Of a stretch of DNA of 43,945 nt, positions 498 to 20,630 are shown piece after piece; position 1 is the stretch's first letter; the number at the start of each line of letters is the position of its first letter. A model generated the notes under the pieces. It was not told where the DNA came from. It was given only the letters and a program-made list of their open reading frames with translations, and did no database searches. The DNA comes from Escherichia phage vB_EcoS_PNS1. The position numbers and the translations under genes are program-made. The stretch lies in sequence record NC_073063.1; one strand, written 5' to 3'.

Positions 498-3137
498 ATG
501 GCAGATCAGGCAGCGGGCATCACGCTCAAGGCGGACGTCGCGCAAATTAAAACGGCTAATACTGTGCTGGACACATTTGCGCAGAAATCCGAGAACACAG
601 AACAGAAAGTAAAGAAATTAAACGACACACTTGGCAAGTCGAAAAAGGTTACTGGCGACGCTGCTGGCGGAATGGAAAAGTTAGCGACTGAATCGCAGCG
701 CGCCGCCGACGGCATGACGAAACAGGAGCGACTCGCCAGCCGATTAGGCATGTCGACCAAAAACCTGGGATTCGCATCGCGGAACGCCGCATTCCAGTTA
801 CAGGATATCGCGGTAACGCTTGAGATGGGTATGCCGGTGCATCGAGTCATGCTTCAGCAGCTACCGCAGCTTACTGGGGCGTTTGGCGGGTTGGGGAATA
901 CGCTGCGTTATGTCGTCGGCACACTCGGCCCGTTAGGGATCGGCATCGCTGCATTAACGGCAACGATGGGCGTAGGCGTGGCGATTATGTCCCGCGCGGA
1001 AAACCAAGTGGCGGCGCTTAACAAGACGCTGGCGCTGTCCGGTAATATTTCTGGCCTAACAGCTAACCAGATACTGGTGCTATCCGAGAACGCCGAGCGG
1101 ATGGGCGGATCATTCCGCAAGACGCGTGACACAATTCAGTCACTGGCGGCGGCTGGTGTGAAAGCTGGTGCGGACTTCGGCGCACTGGCGAAGGTAGTGA
1201 ATGACTTCTCGAAGGTATCCAGCCAGCCGATCGAAGATGTGGTCGCGGCGGTGGCGAAGCTGTCAACCGACCCGGTAGGAGGCTTGCGCGCACTGGCGGA
1301 TAAGTATCACGTCGTAAACGAAGCGCAGATCCAGCAGGTGCAGTCGTTGGTGGATATGGGCCGCGAGACAGACGCAGTTGCGTTGGCTAACAAAACTGCC
1401 GCCGCGTCGTTCACCACTATGACCAACGATATTAAGGCCAACATGGGCACGCTTGAGCGGTCGATGAACGTCGTCACATCGGCAGCTAAATCCATGTGGG
1501 ATGCCATCCTGGATGTGGGCCGCGCGCAGTCCTCCAATGAGTCCGAGATGAAAGCGCGCGAATCACTACAGCGCATGACCACTGCTTACTATGCCGAGAT
1601 GAAAGCGGTAAACGCTGCCGGTGGGGTAATGACTGAAGCGCAGAAAGCACGTATTAACATGCTTTACAGCGAACTGGTCGCCCAGGAAAAAGTGGTGGCG
1701 TCGCTCACCCTGCGTAACCGTGCCGAGCGAGACAACGCCCGCGCCGCAGACGAATCCGCAAAGGCGAACGAGGAGGCCAACCGCACCGCCCGTGACCGAG
1801 CCGCGTTTGAAAAGGAGTACGCAACTAACGCTAAAAAACGCGCCGACGAGATCGCCCGCCTCAATTTGCTGAATAAGCGCGGCGTTATTGATGAGAAAGA
1901 GCTTGCCGAGGCGGTGAAGCAGGTAAACGAGCGCTACAAAGACCCCGCCCCGAAGAAGGCCGCGGCTGTTCGCGTGGATGCCGGTATGAAAATGCTGGAA
2001 GTCGCGCGGAGCGAACTGGCCCAGCTTCGAGAATCCGGCAAGCAGATCGAAGCCAACGCGTCTACGCAGACCCGCACGCAACGCGCTCAAGCGGCCTTAA
2101 ACAAGCTGATCGCCGACAATGAGCAGTTAATTGCTGCGAGCAAAGAAAGAGCGCTAACGGCAGCCGAAAAGCAGCAGATGGCCGAATTCGGACGCGTGAA
2201 GGAAGTGCGCGAGCAGATCGTCGAAGAAGCTAAATTGCTGGACGCGAAAGAGAAGCAGGTTAAGGCGCACGCGCAGATCGATGCCTTCGTTAAGAACCAG
2301 AACGCTGAACTAAAAGCCACCGCCGCGGGCTATGCGCTTTCCACTCGAGAAGCGGCAAACCTGCGTGAAGAATTGCAGCTAATCGACCGCCTGAAGCGTG
2401 TTGGCGCTAACGATACCGATATTGACAAGGCGGTGTCTAAGTTGCGGGAAGTGCAGGAGGCGCAGACCGGTGCTAACGCCTCGCTATGGGATGGCTTCAG
2501 CCGCGGGCTTAAGGATAGCGTGGATGAAATGGGTAACGGATATACGCAGATGGCGTCGCTCACGAAATTTACATTCAGCGCTATGCAAGACTCGATGAAC
2601 GAGTTTTTCGAGACGGGCAAGATTAACGCGAAGGATATGGTCAAATCCATCCTGAGCGAGTTAATCAAGCTGGCTACCTCGCAGGCGTTCAAGTCCATCG
2701 TTGGCGCTTTCGGTGGTGGCGGCAAAAACGGATTGTTCGGCGCTATCTTCTCTGGCCTCACTAAGAATGCGGACGGAGGAGCGTACGCAGGAGGAAATCT
2801 AGCGGCCTATTCGGGTCAGGTGGTAAGCCAGCCTACCTTTTTCAGTTATGGCGTCCAGGCGTTCGCTAAGGGCGCAGGATTGATGGGTGAGGCTGGACCC
2901 GAGGCCATCATGCCACTGAAGCGCGGGCCGGACGGGAAACTGGGCGTTGCCGCGTCTGGCGCAGGCGGTGGTATGGTCGTGACGACTAACGTTTACACGG
3001 GGGCCGGTAAAACGGATACCAGTGTCAGCGGGCCAGACCCCCGTACCGCGCAGGCGTTCGGCAAGCAAATCACCGAAGCGGTGAAGGCTGAGATCGTGAA
3101 AGCGACGAAACCGGGTGGAGTACTGTACAAACGATGA
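498..3137 (+). CDS. tail tape measure protein
   Basis: 879 aa, Ala/Gln/Lys-rich helical protein with Gly-rich C-terminus; sits between chaperone G/G-T and distal tail genes; RBS aaggggg before ATG. Confidence 0.9.
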   Translation: MADQAAGITLKADVAQIKTANTVLDTFAQKSENTEQKVKKLNDTLGKSKKVTGDAAGGMEKLATESQRAADGMTKQERLASRLGMSTKNLGFASRNAAFQLQDIAVTLEMGMPVHRVMLQQLPQLTGAFGGLGNTLRYVVGTLGPLGIGIAALTATMGVGVAIMSRAENQVAALNKTLALSGNISGLTANQILVLSENAERMGGSFRKTRDTIQSLAAAGVKAGADFGALAKVVNDFSKVSSQPIEDVVAAVAKLSTDPVGGLRALADKYHVVNEAQIQQVQSLVDMGRETDAVALANKTAAASFTTMTNDIKANMGTLERSMNVVTSAAKSMWDAILDVGRAQSSNESEMKARESLQRMTTAYYAEMKAVNAAGGVMTEAQKARINMLYSELVAQEKVVASLTLRNRAERDNARAADESAKANEEANRTARDRAAFEKEYATNAKKRADEIARLNLLNKRGVIDEKELAEAVKQVNERYKDPAPKKAAAVRVDAGMKMLEVARSELAQLRESGKQIEANASTQTRTQRAQAALNKLIADNEQLIAASKERALTAAEKQQMAEFGRVKEVREQIVEEAKLLDAKEKQVKAHAQIDAFVKNQNAELKATAAGYALSTREAANLREELQLIDRLKRVGANDTDIDKAVSKLREVQEAQTGANASLWDGFSRGLKDSVDEMGNGYTQMASLTKFTFSAMQDSMNEFFETGKINAKDMVKSILSELIKLATSQAFKSIVGAFGGGGKNGLFGAIFSGLTKNADGGAYAGGNLAAYSGQVVSQPTFFSYGVQAFAKGAGLMGEAGPEAIMPLKRGPDGKLGVAASGAGGGMVVTTNVYTGAGKTDTSVSGPDPRTAQAFGKQITEAVKAEIVKATKPGGVLYKR

Positions 3138-3144
3138 TAAAATG

Positions 3145-3173
3145 GCCCCCACAACCATCGTGGGGGCTTTTCT
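3145..3173 (+). terminator. hairpin plus T-run after tape measure gene (probable attenuator)
   Basis: Stem gcccccac/gtgggggc with 7-nt loop followed by ttttct, immediately before ATG at 3174. Confidence 0.45.
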
Positions 3174-3773
3174 ATGTCACAAGGTACAATCACACTAACG
3201 AACGGAAGTAAGACCGTAACGGGCGCTGGAACGGCGTTCCTTAGCGAGATCGGGAAGGTCCGCGTATTCGCCCGCATCGACGGCAACGACTACACCGGCA
3301 AAATAGCCGCATTCAACTCTGACACTGAAATCACCCTGGCGGATAACTGGGCCGGTCCAACTAAATCAGGTGCGGCATATGAGCTAATCGAAGCACACGA
3401 CCCGCGATCAAACGAATGGCCCTATTACTGGCACATGCAATTGCAGGGCGGCGGCGACGTGCAGTTGGCTTTCCGGTCGGAGGAATTGCAATTCGGTAAC
3501 GGTTACGGTCAGAACATCGCGGACGGCCCGAACGCCGAAACGAAACAGTTCCCCGTGCAATTCATAGGGCTTACTACTGACAAGTGGTGCAATCCCAAAC
3601 TGGTTTACAACTTCCTTCGCGGGCACTTCGTAAAGCCGTTTGTCGTCACCGCGCCGGATGGCGAAACCGGTTTATTCGTGGTCGAGCGTTCGAGCTTGTC
3701 GTACACAGACAACGGGCACTACACGGCAACGGTATCCGCAACCCTTAAAACTGCTATTGGATTCGTAAGATGA
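3174..3773 (+). CDS. minor/distal tail protein (lambda gpM position)
   Basis: First gene after tape measure; N-terminus shares a motif with the tail fiber at 10079. Confidence 0.6.
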   Translation: MSQGTITLTNGSKTVTGAGTAFLSEIGKVRVFARIDGNDYTGKIAAFNSDTEITLADNWAGPTKSGAAYELIEAHDPRSNEWPYYWHMQLQGGGDVQLAFRSEELQFGNGYGQNIADGPNAETKQFPVQFIGLTTDKWCNPKLVYNFLRGHFVKPFVVTAPDGETGLFVVERSSLSYTDNGHYTATVSATLKTAIGFVR

Positions 3774-14802: not shown

Positions 14803-15494
14803 TTTAAATTTTCCTCGTTAACCGCTATCGCGAAGCCGCGCGGAGTGAGTGAGCGGATTAATTTTGTACGAGCGGATTTACCACCGAGGCGACTATACTG
14901 TTTCGAGTACCCTTTTTCAACGAAAACAGGTTTCTTCTCTGGCATACGGAAGCCGTTGCCGGTCCATAAGCAAGTCAGCTTCGGATATGAATCGCGGGCG
15001 TTGATGTATTCCGGGAAGAGCGGGTGTACGTCATCCTCCGGCAGATACCCCCCATACTCCCACGGGTCGAACGAGTGATCCGGCTTGCGCCACTGGGTGG
15101 AAAGCACACTGCGCGGATTCTCAATCATATATGGCACTTCGAAGAAGTCACCCAGGTAAGCGGCGATCTTCGCGGTGCGCACCGCCTTAAGCTGAAAGGC
15201 GGGGTCTTTTGCACGTTTGCGAGGGAAAGCTGGCGCGCCGCTCACTGCCAGATCCGTACACGGAGGGAACGCATAGATTATATCCGGCGTACCGAAATCG
15301 CCATTCATCGCGCGGTCCACAAAGTCCATATCGATAAACTCATTGCGATATCGGATTCCACGACCATAAATCCGGTAGTCAAGGTATGATCCGTGATCGG
15401 CTTCGGAGTAGTTGAAGCAATAACACTTATGCCCCATCTCGGCAGCACGCTCAATCATCAAGCCGCTGCCGTCAAATAATGACCAGATAATCAT
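14799..15494 (-). CDS. DNA (cytosine-5)-methyltransferase-like protein
   Basis: LFDGSG (motif I-like), FPPCTDLAVSG (PC motif IV-like), ENP (motif VI-like); short at 231 aa. Confidence 0.55.
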   Translation of the reverse strand: MIIWSLFDGSGLMIERAAEMGHKCYCFNYSEADHGSYLDYRIYGRGIRYRNEFIDMDFVDRAMNGDFGTPDIIYAFPPCTDLAVSGAPAFPRKRAKDPAFQLKAVRTAKIAAYLGDFFEVPYMIENPRSVLSTQWRKPDHSFDPWEYGGYLPEDDVHPLFPEYINARDSYPKLTCLWTGNGFRMPEKKPVFVEKGYSKQYSRLGGKSARTKLIRSLTPRGFAIAVNEENLK

Positions 15495-16915
15495 TTGCGC
15501 GCCTTTTTAGCTTTCATGTATTCCATTAAATCGTCCTGAATGTCTCGCTTACTGTCGCGTCGCTCCGCGACCAGCTCGTCCAGTGTGCCGCGCGCCTGGA
15601 TAATGTAGACGAATACGGGACGAGGGTGTCCGGCTTGCATCTGGCGAACTGGCCCGATACGCTCCACGATCTGCGCAAAGTGCTCATAGTTCCAGGTGTC
15701 TGAGAAGATAGCAAGGTGGTGTCCCCCATCCTGCAAGTTAAGGCCGTGACCCGCCGATGCCGGGTGCGCAAACATGATGGGGATCTCGCCCCTGTTCCAC
15801 GCTTCCATATCCTTATTTCCTTGCTTTCCCTTACCCATCGCGACGCCGTGCGGGAATTTCTTCTTAAGACGTGCCAAGTCATGCTTGTACTGGTACGCGA
15901 CGAGCAACGGTGCGCCGTTCAACTCCTCCACGATACTTTCCAGCGCGTCCAGTTTAGCGTCGTGGATTTTCACCCATTCGTCGGTGCGCTCGCCGTCTTC
16001 GTCGACTTTATACACGGCCCCGGAAGCAAGCTGAAGGCACTTAATAGTCTTCGACGCAGCGTTCGCCGCCTCCACAGTTCCGCTTTCCAGTTCGGCAAAT
16101 AGCTCCGCTTCGAACTGGTCATAAATCTTGCGGGCTTTCTTCGGCAGGTCCACAACAACCGGCGTATAGATCGGCTTGTCACATCCGAAGTATTCAGCCG
16201 CATCAACGGTTAGCGACACGTCGGACAGGCGTTGTTGGATTTCTTTCTCGGAGTTCTTAAGCGGGGCGTGCTGCGTAATGAAGCTGCCAGGCTTAACAGG
16301 CTTGCTAATAAACCAGCGGTCCGTGAATGCCTTATAGCTACTGCCGAGGCGTTCTCCGCCGTCGACAAACCACGTCTGCCCCCACAGGTCTTTCAATCCG
16401 TTTGGCGCGGGTGTGCCGGTAAGGTTAATCCAGCGCTTGACGTGCTTATGTGCGATCGCTGCCAGCGCACGGGCGCGCTTACTTCCCTGCTTGCTTCGAT
16501 AGCCTTTCAGCTTAGTCGATTCATCGGCAACCACGACCGTAAAGGGCCATTCGTCGCCGCAATACTCGACGAGCCACTCAACCACATCATAGTTAACACA
16601 AACCACGTTAGCGACGCTCTCAAGCGCAGCGATGCGGTCCTTCTCCGACCCGGTGCCGTCTACTACCAGCAGGGCGGGGAAGCGCCATTTTTCCTGTTCC
16701 GGGGGCCATGTGCCAGATGCAACGCGCAGCGGGGCCAGCACCAGTACGCGGTCCTCCTGGTTGGACAGGATGCCGGTCTGGAACATTTTATTCAGCGCCC
16801 ACAGGGTCGCGCCAGTTTTACCCGACCCCATTGTCGCCCATATATTGCATCGCTTATGCTTGAGGATGAACGCGGTTATCAACTTCTGATATTCGCGACG
16901 TCGGAAACGTGCCAT
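15491..16915 (-). CDS. superfamily II DNA helicase
   Basis: Walker A MGSGKTG and DExx box VVADES; start at internal ATG 16915 (474 aa), coupled to upstream small gene. Confidence 0.85.
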   Translation of the reverse strand: MARFRRREYQKLITAFILKHKRCNIWATMGSGKTGATLWALNKMFQTGILSNQEDRVLVLAPLRVASGTWPPEQEKWRFPALLVVDGTGSEKDRIAALESVANVVCVNYDVVEWLVEYCGDEWPFTVVVADESTKLKGYRSKQGSKRARALAAIAHKHVKRWINLTGTPAPNGLKDLWGQTWFVDGGERLGSSYKAFTDRWFISKPVKPGSFITQHAPLKNSEKEIQQRLSDVSLTVDAAEYFGCDKPIYTPVVVDLPKKARKIYDQFEAELFAELESGTVEAANAASKTIKCLQLASGAVYKVDEDGERTDEWVKIHDAKLDALESIVEELNGAPLLVAYQYKHDLARLKKKFPHGVAMGKGKQGNKDMEAWNRGEIPIMFAHPASAGHGLNLQDGGHHLAIFSDTWNYEHFAQIVERIGPVRQMQAGHPRPVFVYIIQARGTLDELVAERRDSKRDIQDDLMEYMKAKKARK

Positions 16916-16919
16916 ATCT

Positions 16920-17138
16920 TTATTCCGCCTTTTTCCAGACTTCGGTTTCACTGTTCCAGTTCCTTTTTGTGGCGTCGTAGTTGGTGCTGTACCCGATGTG
17001 TACACCCGTCGCCCGGAAGCTCTTAAATTTTTGCCAGCACACCGTCAACGGCAGCGGGTAATTCATGCCCGCGATAAACCATACGCGATCGCCAGGTTTG
17101 CATTCGCCCAGTGTGGTGAGTCGGTAGTGTTCTTTCAT
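16920..17138 (-). CDS. hypothetical protein
   Basis: 73 aa from ATG 17138 with GGAGA RBS; preceded by hairpin ggcgggc/gcccgcc containing a GCGGGACA half-site. Confidence 0.4.
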   Translation of the reverse strand: MKEHYRLTTLGECKPGDRVWFIAGMNYPLPLTVCWQKFKSFRATGVHIGYSTNYDATKRNWNSETEVWKKAE

Positions 17139-17181
17139 CGTCATGTCTCCCAAAAATGGCGGGACAAGCCCGCCGTATTAA

Positions 17182-17355
17182 TTATTCTTGCGCTGCGCGG
17201 TAGCGGCGCTGCCGTTCGCGCTCTTTCTTATTGCGGCATGATTTGCACTCGGCTCGATACCCGTCTGGACTGCGCGCAGTCTTACCGGTGTATTTGTGGA
17301 ACTGGGATAGCGGCTTGACGCAGCCGCAATTACTGCAGCGTTTTTCTTCAATCAT
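17182..17355 (-). CDS. small zinc-ribbon protein
   Basis: 57 aa from ATG 17355 with GAGGA RBS; CxxC...CxxC; similar to N-terminal repeats of the HNH endonuclease at 17671..18273. Confidence 0.45.
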   Translation of the reverse strand: MIEEKRCSNCGCVKPLSQFHKYTGKTARSPDGYRAECKSCRNKKERERQRRYRAAQE

Positions 17356-17395
17356 CTCTAAAATCCTCGATATGGCTAACCGGCACACTATACCG

Positions 17396-17674
17396 CTACG
17401 CGACCAATTCAGCAACCAATAAATCACAGTCGGCTATGTTGTCGATAACGCGAACGTCAGCACCGCGGCGGGCCATTCTCTCATGCTCACGTACCTGGTG
17501 CGGCTTCGGTTTTCCTCCTTGGCGCTTCACTTCGACGAACACTATTTTGCCGTTGATGATAATAATCAGGTCGGGCGCACCCGCGCGCCCCTCCCATGCC
17601 AGTTTTCGGCAGAATCCGCCGACCTCTTTCACCCGTTTCATCAGGTGACTTTGAATCTTGCCTTCTGGTGTCAT
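17396..17674 (-). CDS. VRR-NUC domain nuclease
   Basis: 92 aa from ATG 17674; D...EVK PD-(D/E)XK core in a VRR-NUC-sized protein; AAGGA RBS. Confidence 0.75.
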   Translation of the reverse strand: MTPEGKIQSHLMKRVKEVGGFCRKLAWEGRAGAPDLIIIINGKIVFVEVKRQGGKPKPHQVREHERMARRGADVRVIDNIADCDLLVAELVA

Positions 17675-18273
17675 TGTCGGCTTTTCCTTACGGCGGCGAT
17701 GGCAGGTCCGATAAACTTCTTCATTTCGTCCGGGGTAAACCGATCCCCGCGGGCTATGTTGCACTCTACGCAGCACGGCACGCAGTTATCTTTCGTATGG
17801 CCTACTGCGTTGTCGAGTCGGTCCGCGCCATTGTCGCCGGTGAATCCGCAGTATGCGCACGGCTGAGAAGTAAGGCGCAGCACGTCCTCTGTAGTAAGGT
17901 CGGTGTTTAGCCCCTTCCTTTCGTCTGCCTTACGGTACTGAAAGAGTTTATAGTAAGCGCGGATCTCTGGTGTCCGGTGGTTGTACTCACGGCGTGACTT
18001 ATTAGCGCACGATCGGCATTCTTTACGAATATGCGACCCGTTTGCTTGGCTTCCGGGCCGGAAGTTTTCCGGCGTGAGCGGCTTGCGCTCACCGCACGTA
18101 CGACATGTTACGACCTCCCCGGTGTACTCTCGCCATACTTCTCTCGGCGGCGCGCCTCTTTCCTTATCCCGTCTCTCTTTCTTATATGCCGCCATGCATT
18201 TGGCGCACCACGACTGGCCCTTGTTGAAAGCGGACTCATCTTTACCCGTATTACAACGCCCACAATGTTTCAT
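17671..18273 (-). CDS. HNH homing endonuclease with N-terminal zinc-ribbon repeats
   Basis: C-terminal CAYCG...DRLDN...GH...N...CVPCCVECN HNH-type motif; several CxxC pairs N-terminally; start at ATG 18273 with GAGGTG RBS. Confidence 0.75.
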   Translation of the reverse strand: MKHCGRCNTGKDESAFNKGQSWCAKCMAAYKKERRDKERGAPPREVWREYTGEVVTCRTCGERKPLTPENFRPGSQANGSHIRKECRSCANKSRREYNHRTPEIRAYYKLFQYRKADERKGLNTDLTTEDVLRLTSQPCAYCGFTGDNGADRLDNAVGHTKDNCVPCCVECNIARGDRFTPDEMKKFIGPAIAAVRKSRQ

Positions 18274-18338
18274 ATACACCTCGAAAAAGAAAACGTCAGA
18301 CAATATGCCTGACGTTTCCGCTAAAAGCAACATTTCCG

Positions 18339-20630
18339 CTACTTGCGGTAACGATACATACAATCGCCTTCTGCGGCAAGCGGGAAGCCTTTCGCCCAAA
18401 TCGGCAGGTCACACATCAGCGCGCACAACTCCTCGGTTGTGTAGTCGTCAGTATCCGGCACTTCGGTGATCAATTCATCGTGCACTGACAGTACGATCTC
18501 ATAGCCCGCAGCCTCAACGCCGGGCATGGACCACGCGAGGATATCGCGACACAGCGCCTGTACGATGTTTTCCGTCAGTTTGCCGCCGTAGGTATACTGG
18601 AATCCCCACTGGCGCGTCGTCTGATTCTCGCCCTGGTATTTGATGCGGGTGCTGGTGCGCTTCTTGCCGGTATCTTCGTCGATCTCGGTTGTCACTGACA
18701 GCGCAATGCCTGGGTAACTCATAATACGCCCCGACGGCAACTCAATTTTCAACCACCACCCAGCGGCGTTCGGGTCGTCGCGCTCCTCGTCGAAGGTTGG
18801 GTCGTGCTTCGCCTTCGTTCGAACAATCTTGAGCGCTTTCCTGCCATCCGGGCGAACGTTCGCGCCAGCCCAGTACGCTTTACCAGGATTTCGGATTGCA
18901 CATAACACCGCATCCTCAAGCTCGGCCCAAAATGCTACGGTCTTCGGGTGGGCCTCACGCCACATGCGTTTGATCGCGTCGCATGTCAGCCATACGTTTT
19001 TAGGCAGTATGTAGGTTGGGCGCTCGTCTTTCTTGCCAGGCTTCGGCGGGCGCTTCGCTTCGTTAATGCGAGCGTACTCATAACCACGCTTCGCCGCCGC
19101 CCAAATGTGATCCGGGAATGTGCCCTTCATGACGTCCGCCATCGCGTACAGGTCCAGTCCCAGGTTTTTAGCGAATTGCAAGAACGCCGCGACGCCGCCA
19201 CCATAGCCCAGTCCCAATTCGCAAGCCTTACCGATCTGGCGTAAATCCTTACGGTTAGCTTTGATGTAGTCCGGGTCGAGGCCGAACATCTTACCGGCAG
19301 TCTCACAATAAATATCGCGACCGGCCTTAAACACCATTAGCGCGGTTTTCTCGCCAGCGATCCAGGCAAGCCCGCGCCCTTCAACGTTGGAGTAGTCCGC
19401 TACGACAAACTTCTTGCCCTTTGCGGGGATAATGCACCCGCGAACGGTCGAGGCGGTTAGCTTCGATATGTCATACGCCCAGTGCGCGGTCCCGCGTAAC
19501 AGGGAGTTGATGCCGTTGGTGAGCATGTGCGACCGGACCCAAAAAGCGACGTCGCTCTCGCCTTCGCGGCGCTTAATCTTCCCTTCGTGGTCGTCGCTAT
19601 ACTCGCCGCGTGCCAGGTTTTGCGGCTGAAAGCTTTTACCGGCCCAGCGCAGCGTGCGCTTTGCGCCGCCATACTGAAGACATCCACGGCGGCGACCATC
19701 TGCGGATAAGCCGTTAACTAGCGGATTGTATTTAGTCGATGCCGTTGATGACGCGCCGAGGCGCATTTCTATAAGCGCTTTGCCTTCGTCGGGGAAGTCC
19801 GGGTCTTCAAGCAGGTCGTTAAGTGTGGATTTCTGCGCGTTGTGGATTGTGAACGCCGGGGCGATATCACGCAGGATTGGCAGGAATTCATTGCCGGTAA
19901 GCTTACCGCCGAAGCGCTCCCAGGCTTCTTCCTTCAATTCTTCTTTATGCGCCTGTACCGCTTTGATCGCGGCGTTCGCCAGATCAACGTCCACGTAGAA
20001 GCCGCGGTCGTTGACCAACTGGTCAATAAGCAGGATTTCATCTTCCTTCGGCGTGTTGCCCCAGTCCGGTATGCGCCAATAGACTTCCCTCATAGCGATG
20101 ATATCCAACGCGGCATAGCGCAGGAATTTAGCCCACTCCTCTGGGTGCGTCTCGCGCGTGTAGCGGCGGATTTTGTAGGTCTTAGGGGTAGGCTTACAGA
20201 ATCGTTTGATCAGCGCCTTGCCCGCCTTATCCTTCGCGTGCTCTGCGTCAACGCCCAGCACCTGGCACTGCATATCGAGGCTACCGGGCAGCGCGTGGCG
20301 AAAAGCCATAATCATGGTGTCTTCGATCTGGCTTACCGGCAGGTCAATACCCCACTTCTCACGGATAACCAGGCGGTCAAACAGGAGGCCGTTAGCCATC
20401 ACTATTTTTGCTTTCTTGCGGGATACCCGGCGGAGCGCCTTGCGCAGTTCACGCGGCATTGTGGGGAATTCAGTGCAATCCCATGTCTGCACGCGGCCCT
20501 CGTCGATGGCGTAGGTGCAAATCATAATCTCGGTGGTTGGGTGCTCTGCGTAGGCGTACGCCCCAACTTTCTTCAGGTCCACCCCGCTAAATGTCTCGGT
20601 ATCGAGAAACAGGCGTTCGAAGTCTTTCAT
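18339..20630 (-). CDS. family A DNA polymerase with 3-prime to 5-prime exonuclease domain
   Basis: 763 aa; exo motif LFLDTETFSG, O-helix/motif B region ...GKACELGLGYGGG, motif C SVHDEL. Confidence 0.95.
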   Translation of the reverse strand: MKDFERLFLDTETFSGVDLKKVGAYAYAEHPTTEIMICTYAIDEGRVQTWDCTEFPTMPRELRKALRRVSRKKAKIVMANGLLFDRLVIREKWGIDLPVSQIEDTMIMAFRHALPGSLDMQCQVLGVDAEHAKDKAGKALIKRFCKPTPKTYKIRRYTRETHPEEWAKFLRYAALDIIAMREVYWRIPDWGNTPKEDEILLIDQLVNDRGFYVDVDLANAAIKAVQAHKEELKEEAWERFGGKLTGNEFLPILRDIAPAFTIHNAQKSTLNDLLEDPDFPDEGKALIEMRLGASSTASTKYNPLVNGLSADGRRRGCLQYGGAKRTLRWAGKSFQPQNLARGEYSDDHEGKIKRREGESDVAFWVRSHMLTNGINSLLRGTAHWAYDISKLTASTVRGCIIPAKGKKFVVADYSNVEGRGLAWIAGEKTALMVFKAGRDIYCETAGKMFGLDPDYIKANRKDLRQIGKACELGLGYGGGVAAFLQFAKNLGLDLYAMADVMKGTFPDHIWAAAKRGYEYARINEAKRPPKPGKKDERPTYILPKNVWLTCDAIKRMWREAHPKTVAFWAELEDAVLCAIRNPGKAYWAGANVRPDGRKALKIVRTKAKHDPTFDEERDDPNAAGWWLKIELPSGRIMSYPGIALSVTTEIDEDTGKKRTSTRIKYQGENQTTRQWGFQYTYGGKLTENIVQALCRDILAWSMPGVEAAGYEIVLSVHDELITEVPDTDDYTTEELCALMCDLPIWAKGFPLAAEGDCMYRYRK

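Follow-up and report, generated by a model that had tools for sequence, protein, structure and literature searches.

We describe a small gene of Escherichia phage vB_EcoS_PNS1 (NC_073063.1), whose 43,945-nucleotide record, the window of this analysis, is a nearly complete genome of Dhillonvirus, the group of E. coli siphophages that includes EP23. The open reading frame (ORF) at 17182–17355 on the minus strand encodes a protein of 57 amino acids with two CxxC motifs, which is probably a conserved, non-catalytic, free-standing Cys4 treble-clef finger serving the phage replication module as a nucleic-acid-binding factor, and kin by common ancestry to the zinc units of a 200-residue nuclease encoded nearby. 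What is new here is a stand-alone member of an already known zinc-finger module.

Sequence, fold and relatives of the small protein

The frame begins MIEEKRCSNCGC and is preceded by a GAGGA ribosome-binding site. Its putative zinc ligands are C7, C10, C37 and C40; all four cysteines are invariant among 32 family members, and the two pairs lie 26 residues apart, within the spacing of about 15–30 residues between two CxxC pairs that defines a zinc unit of this class. The stand-alone family also keeps K5, K14, D31, G32 and R34 invariant, and a conserved loop reads FHKYTGKTARSPDGYR. The protein contains 16 lysines and arginines against 7 acidic residues (net charge about +9), and its C-terminal helix is basic, being rich in arginine and lysine. 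In the AlphaFold2 model, with a predicted local distance difference test (pLDDT) score of 89.3, four short strands are combined with one long helix that opens with the second CxxC, so that by this model the fold is a treble-clef (beta4-alpha) zinc finger and not a classic two-knuckle zinc ribbon. An earlier annotation of this DNA made by a model from the letters and their reading frames (hereafter the sequence-only reading) had called the product a stand-alone zinc ribbon, of which only the first half stands.

The closest solved structure belongs to the restriction enzyme Hpy99I. The small-protein profile aligns to its chain residues 73–126 (E 0.16), a stretch that corresponds to the first repeat (residues 65–126 in the structure paper) only if chain and paper numbering agree. 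This first beta4-alpha2 repeat is non-catalytic and holds a structural zinc by means of two CxxC motifs; its second hairpin enters the DNA major groove and reads bases (PMC2699513).

Start codons of the gene are annotated inconsistently. Some records place the start upstream at an alternative GTG or TTG, giving products of 81–102 residues that overlap the end of the preceding VRR-NUC gene (17182–17427 in the window). The homologue in Escherichia phage Opt212, for example, is annotated with 102 residues; the conserved ATG with its GAGGA site gives 57.

The nuclease in question is a free-standing PacI-like beta-beta-alpha-Me (HNH/EndoVII-type) enzyme encoded at 17671–18273 on the minus strand, and it begins with two Cys4 units. 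The first (residues 1–38, ligands C4, C7, C23 and C26; 18160–18273) was delimited by hhalign, by a generic repeat hidden Markov model (HMM; 15.8 bits) and by AlphaFold2 secondary structure; it is a short-loop variant, its loop being 11 residues shorter and devoid of the second hairpin. The second (residues 54–103, ligands C57, C60, C86 and C89; 17965–18114), recognized by BLASTP, hhalign and AlphaFold2 elements, is full length, and its pattern of strands and helix (E54–56, E63–65, E71–73, E82–86, H87–90) matches that of the small protein.

BLASTP aligned small-protein residues 7–51 with nuclease residues 57–100 at 40% identity over 45 residues (E 3e-5). This similarity exceeds what CxxC spacing can provide, because in 5000 permutations of the small protein with every cysteine held in place the local score averaged 34.4 +/- 7.2 and never reached the observed 75 (z = 5.7); the objection that only the spacing is common to both thus fails. 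Profile comparison of the small-protein family with unit 2 gave a probability of 96% (E 2.5e-9) and with unit 1 of 95% (E 2e-8), while the two nuclease units matched each other at 86%. A generic-unit HMM trained on 376 units from unrelated proteins, when run over the six-frame translation of the whole window, found only two frames: that of the small protein, scoring 70.6 bits, and that of the 200-residue nuclease. As far as sequence comparison can establish it, the small protein is homologous to both zinc units of the nuclease. The likeness to its N-terminal repeats reported by the sequence-only reading is thereby confirmed for each repeat in turn, and the outer limits it gave for the pair, 17182 and 18273, are exact gene boundaries. 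The two genes are not strictly adjacent, as it had supposed, but are separated by the VRR-NUC gene (17396–17674).

The module is widespread. Among 1.84 billion proteins, the small-protein profile detected 2502 representatives at E<=1e-3; the best 150 matches include 140 long proteins, 132 of which carry two to six units scoring at least 15 bits. Pfam assignments for 149 top homologues (E<=0.001) were led by Stc1 (87) and DUF6510 (52), followed by HNH (28), HNH_5 (23), Endonuclease_7 (18) and HNH_4 (11), with single cases of T5orf172, MUG113, Bro-N and others. Nucleases of phages and giant viruses, of HNH, EndoVII and partly GIY-YIG-like type, bear the module as one to nine tandem N-terminal repeats. 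Consistent with this picture, the small protein matched phrog_1035 (3e-10), phrog_2255 (3.6e-7) and phrog_2340 (7.2e-7), and its fold matches in the viral structure library BFVD are largely annotated as HNH, endonuclease VII, beta-beta-alpha-Me or group I intron endonucleases.

About 26 clusters of 56–110 residues without any Pfam domain make up the stand-alone set. Ranked by best single-unit score, all 12 short proteins (minimum 55.9 bits) stand above all 140 long ones (maximum 54.6 bits). The stand-alone signature returned one weak actinobacterial match from 185,579 bacterial and archaeal genomes, and the family therefore seems confined to phage and metagenome sequence. A fused architecture at a comparable genomic position occurs in a distant phage (IMGVR_UViG_3300033074_000168, 2974–3717), where a single zinc unit, a long basic linker and a canonical HNH domain are encoded directly upstream of a helicase gene.

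Within its own group the small gene is well preserved. It is present in 156 phage records at no less than 90% identity, and the 1.6-kb region around it finds matches in 152 phage records at 90–96%. The same 57 codons recur in 17 of the 18 Dhillonvirus copies read, the remaining copy (locus L019) reading through the usual stop. A pooled pN/pS, the ratio of nonsynonymous to synonymous polymorphism, of 0.06 (66 pairs) shows strong purifying selection on the coding sequence. Edwardsiella phage eiAU, Serratia phage Smarc3 and several metagenomic phages have orthologues of 50–65% identity at the equivalent place, and the gene order is kept in divergent phages: polA, usually VRR-NUC, the finger gene, an optional gene of about 70 codons and the SNF2 helicase gene. 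In metagenomic loci L023–L026 a DNA_pol_A gene adjoins the small-protein homologue, and in the divergent loci L023–L025 an SNF2-rel_dom gene does so. In the window the gene is co-oriented with polA and VRR-NUC and is the last before a predicted terminator.

Proposed role and competing functional readings

We hypothesize that the small protein binds one zinc ion via C7, C10, C37 and C40 and touches nucleic acid with the hairpin or loop FHKYTGKTARSPDGYR, which would correspond to the hairpin with which Hpy99I reads bases, as well as with its arginine- and lysine-rich C-terminal helix. In this capacity it could serve as a non-catalytic DNA-targeting or accessory factor in phage DNA replication or recombination, or in the regulation of these processes.

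Several points weigh against this proposal. Eukaryotic Stc1 is a protein–protein adaptor, and the fold alone is therefore no proof of DNA binding. The related phage Bas72 lacks the gene in its syntenic region, which means that the replication module can exist without it. Finally, the protein does not formally belong to either Pfam family of the module: its best match, DUF6510 (PF20120), reached E 0.062 and 13.6 bits against a gathering cut-off of 26.4, and Stc1 (PF12898) was not matched.

The link with Stc1 raises an alternative that is real, albeit unlikely, namely that the small protein, like the tandem finger of Stc1, is an adaptor bridging the polymerase, VRR-NUC or the SNF2 helicase and does not bind nucleic acid. 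Its homologues match the Pfam Stc1 domain, its own profile weakly matches the Stc1 structure 2luy, and its synteny is tight, the homologue even overlapping the SNF2 helicase gene in L023 and L024. However, the high positive charge and the basic helix favour nucleic acid as the ligand, the usual fusion partners of the module are DNA nucleases, and the closest solved structure reads DNA bases. A constant neighbour is also lacking, as L026 has no VRR-NUC gene and its SNF2 gene is not adjacent to the finger gene.

We regard it as quite improbable that the small protein is a trans-acting subunit, taken over from homing endonucleases, for targeting or shielding. As a decoy, it would occupy homing-nuclease sites and shield the replication module from invasion, which would amount to anti-homing immunity. 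As a specificity subunit, it would direct either the minimal 92-residue VRR-NUC or the SNF2 helicase to DNA of a particular sequence or structure.

Catalysis by the small protein itself, as a minimal active His-Me (HNH-type) nuclease with H20, at a strand end, as general base and N42, within the helix, as metal ligand, is very unlikely because both residues vary within the family. H20 is replaced by S or G in homologues P0071, P0155, P0156, P0159, P0165 and P0166, and N42 by C, R or S in P0003, P0158, P0067 and P0165; neither belongs to the invariant set, and the protein has no conserved pair of a general-base His or Tyr and a metal-ligand Asn or His. It is true that H20 and C37 are spaced by 17 residues, as are H41 and C58 of T4 endonuclease VII, and that the annotation of RalR demonstrates the existence of very small DNases. 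The treble-clef scaffold, too, is shared with zinc-containing HNH nucleases (PMC5714182). Nevertheless, hhalign gave only 0.8% probability against the catalytic domain of the neighbouring nuclease, and the repeat of Hpy99I to which the profile aligns is a non-catalytic one. The label "HNH endonuclease", attached to the gene in some GenBank records, is contradicted by the catalytic residues missing from its sequence.

A further label, "Lar-like restriction alleviation protein" in RefSeq, stems from phrog_5558, the best PHROG match of the small protein (6.9e-17). Lar and the small protein are both small, phage-borne and furnished with cysteines in CxxC motifs, but a Lar-like function is highly improbable. 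The true Lar of the Rac prophage (b1348, now named RalR) falls in another cluster, phrog_599; the hhalign alignment of the family with Lar extends over only 12 columns about the first CxxC (25.6% probability), with no homology past that motif; and the Pfam family Lar_restr_allev (PF14354) matches one of the 149 homologues and not the small protein. We thus rejected the Lar-like identity, given the separate PHROGs and a likeness limited to the first CxxC. The lar gene of the E. coli K-12 Rac prophage (2734–2928 in locus L027) is itself now annotated as ralR, encoding an endodeoxyribonuclease toxin paired with the small RNA antitoxin RalA, so PHROG-propagated "Lar-like" labels rest on a renamed and re-interpreted prototype.

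GenBank records carry two more names for the gene. "Meiotic chromosome segregation protein" is probably an echo of Stc1 similarity, because the structure 2luy bears that molecule name, and "kilA anti-repressor" found no support in any search made here. Pfam and NCBIfam returned nothing above threshold for either the small protein or the 200-residue nuclease. Literature searches on Dhillonvirus, phage HNH/Stc1 proteins and homing-endonuclease zinc modules turned up no account of the small protein, and retron papers mentioning Dhillonvirus were irrelevant or did not name the gene.

Origin of the finger and mobility of the nuclease

The sequence-only reading had further suggested that the small protein is a domesticated or decayed DNA-binding module of a homing endonuclease, and had proposed to see whether relatives keep an intact endonuclease at the locus. 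The 200-residue nuclease was found in 26 records, compared with 156 for the small gene. EP23 and PTXU06 lack it: in alignment, about 640 bp are cleanly missing between the end of polA and the VRR-NUC start codon. At the corresponding site after polA, Bas72 carries a phrog_1035 nuclease of 49% identity. That close relatives differ in having or lacking the gene at one exact intergenic site shows, as judged from the aligned genomes, that the nuclease is an independently acquired, sporadic mobile insertion with only distantly related repeats. Replication genes are common landing sites for mobile nuclease elements, a preference that would explain why it lies near the small gene.

That the small gene is a decaying remnant of a homing endonuclease once present at the locus, stripped of its nuclease domain and drifting to loss, is scarcely credible. 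The module is, admittedly, mostly found fused to nucleases, but the gene is intact in the 156 Dhillonvirus records that carry it and under the selection described above. The terminator stem begins 7 bases past its stop codon, leaving no room for nuclease remnants, and the next ORF is 28 bases away. The finger gene is also conserved, in its usual surroundings, in phages 50–60% diverged that carry no nuclease downstream of it. Marks of a pseudogene, such as patchy occurrence, broken frames, relaxed selection and remnants of a nuclease domain alongside, were not found for the small gene.

An arrangement in phage eiAU (NC_042029.1) speaks for a remnant. Its orthologue of the small gene, unannotated in RefSeq (2935–3165), is directly followed by an HNH gene (3113–3637), and the two share sequence at the 3′ end of the orthologue in different frames. 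The HNH protein also matches the catalytic part of phrog_1035, and the pair looks colinear with phrog_1035. However, the HNH protein belongs to phrog_2118, which is matched in 174 phage records at unrelated loci. In 163 of these 174 records the match covers at least 80% of the 160-residue query, and the listed matches span about 340–480 bases; they look like compact genes, with no sign of a zinc unit within the matched spans (sequence upstream of them was not inspected). The eiAU pair was therefore rejected as an intact or split ancestor, given these short matches at unrelated loci, and its HNH gene appears to be a second, independent nuclease insertion into the same replication module.

Recent duplication of the second nuclease repeat into the small gene, or copying in the opposite direction, is barely conceivable. 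The two sequences lie only about 600 bp apart and are 40% identical as proteins, yet against the small-protein profile the best unit of the nuclease reaches only 11.8 bits, last among 154 proteins, whereas 150 of the others exceed 53 bits. Aligned codon by codon, the small gene and unit 2 are 48% identical in nucleotides, and of their 18 identical residues only 7 also agree at the third position. Moreover, most genomes with the small gene lack the nuclease, and the small proteins of Envy, where the nuclease is present, and EP23, where it is absent, are identical; no co-variation with nuclease presence was thus seen in this pair. The zinc unit was also considered as a degenerate duplicate of the HNH catalytic finger and rejected on the 0.8% hhalign result, which leaves only structural resemblance.

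We infer that the resemblance between the small protein and its neighbour reflects common module ancestry, possibly through ancient capture of a nuclease targeting unit, and not local duplication or decay. It is plausible that the finger ultimately derives from nuclease-associated units, because thousands of fused copies face about 26 stand-alone clusters. The earlier interpretation accordingly survives in its choice of module family: the unit is indeed one widely used by homing-type nucleases. Decay is not borne out, nor is descent from, or any special link to, the endonuclease nearby.

Organization of the locus and comparison with known systems

All genes and hairpins of the locus are on the minus strand, in the order polA, hairpin, 200-residue nuclease gene, VRR-NUC gene, small gene, terminator, phrog_9291 gene and SNF2 helicase gene. 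The family-A DNA polymerase gene polA (18339–20630), identified by its ORF and by annotation in relatives, is the upstream synteny anchor. Between its stop and the start of the nuclease gene, the terminator scan found a terminator-like hairpin with a 14-pair stem and a T-run (18289–18319); DNA alignment with EP23 and PTXU06 places it within the segment missing from nuclease-free genomes. The 92-residue VRR-NUC product was recognized by Pfam VRR_NUC (3.2e-5) and phrog_93 (1.4e-30), its coordinates being supported by tblastn and DNA alignment, and its ATG overlaps the stop codon of the nuclease gene (ATGA). In EP23 the end of polA and the start of VRR-NUC overlap as TAATG, with zero spacer, and PTXU06 has a 31-base spacer, of which the first ~20 bases are shared with nuclease-bearing genomes. 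With a strong hairpin and an ATGA overlap on one side, and TAATG or a 31-base spacer on the other, the insertion changes the coupling of VRR-NUC and the finger gene to polA.

Past the small gene, the scan found an intrinsic-terminator-like hairpin (17158–17174; GGCGGGCTTGTCCCGCC followed by ATTTTT), and the annotation of PTXU06 has a terminator at the equivalent place. This predicted terminator presumably closes a transcription unit of polA, the optional HNH gene, VRR-NUC and the finger gene. The next gene (16920–17138) encodes a 72-residue protein of unknown function that matches phrog_9291 (5.1e-45). A PGD(R/M)(V/I)(W/F) segment is common to this protein, to the protein encoded after the finger gene in Smarc3 and to the one after VRR-NUC in Bas72; in loci L025 and L026 the position is taken by unaligned genes for 68-residue proteins. 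Bas72 (PQ850621.1, 3001–3696 and 4217–4408), which has the 49%-identical nuclease after polA, encodes only a 63-residue protein between VRR-NUC and the helicase. The SNF2-family helicase gene (15491–16915), known from its ORF and the annotation "DNA helicase" in relatives, is the downstream synteny anchor.

The 200-residue nuclease, which begins MKHCGRC, has no Pfam family at E<=1, HNH and Endonuclease_7 included, and is assigned to endonuclease VII in PHROG (3.6e-42). Its catalytic domain (residues 136–200; 17674–17868) was delimited by invariants of the family alignment, by the model and by a PacI match. The family keeps the motif CxYC...G.DRLDN..G(H/Y)...N.V.CC..CN..RG and lacks the His that canonically ends strand 1 as general base, and with it the canonical H-N-H residues. 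The model of the domain (pLDDT >90) has the beta-beta-alpha-Me catalytic fold, with elements E149–152, E164–167 and H169–175. The enzyme is a PacI-like variant that escapes Pfam HNH models.

Some deposits deserve caution. MG065648.1 ("Campylobacter phage A144") and records labelled Acinetobacter and Sodalis are 93–94% identical to E. coli Dhillonviruses in this region, which suggests host mislabelling or contamination. The Dhillonvirus-like PQ843332.1 (Escherichia phage P-GXEC-L2P5) has 88,607 bp, about twice the normal genome length, and may be a concatemer or assembly artefact.

These results do not overturn current understanding and are of moderate interest, mainly as annotation and as a handle on a DNA-recognition repeat. 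They correct the annotation of a gene found in more than 150 coliphage genomes to a stand-alone copy of the DNA-gripping zinc unit of homing-type nucleases, and offer a concrete, testable function for a core gene of the replication module. The small protein would be a natural minimal version of a widespread, uncharacterized DNA-recognition repeat and thus handy for biochemistry, and recognition of the PacI-like mobile nuclease is useful for comparing or engineering Dhillonvirus genomes.

Like PacI (PDB 3m7k), the 200-residue nuclease lacks the canonical catalytic His. PacI is an HNH enzyme in which Tyr replaces that residue (PMC5714182), and the phage family has H or Y at position 159. Unlike PacI, the phage enzyme bears two extra N-terminal zinc units; its gene stands alone, inserted into a phage replication operon, and no obvious methyltransferase partner lies close by.

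With the first repeat of Hpy99I (PDB 3fc3) the small protein shares two CxxC pairs, the first on a hairpin and the second at the helix start, as ligands, putative in the phage protein, of one structural zinc, and four strands followed by a helix, without catalytic residues. The Hpy99I repeat is one domain of a 190-residue dimeric enzyme and has two helices, whereas the small protein is a separate polypeptide with one long basic helix. The sequence similarity between them is marginal, and the DNA binding that is documented for Hpy99I is a prediction for the phage protein.

The closest kin are the N-terminal zinc units of phage HNH/EndoVII endonucleases (phrog_1035, phrog_2255, phrog_2340 and phrog_2633), which profile comparison identifies as the same module and which have the consensus K.C..CG..KPL.EF......DG....CK.C in common with the small protein. 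Unlike these units, the small protein is unfused and falls in a tight clade of its own, with a longer and highly conserved loop; its gene belongs to the core of the replication module and is no sporadic mobile one.

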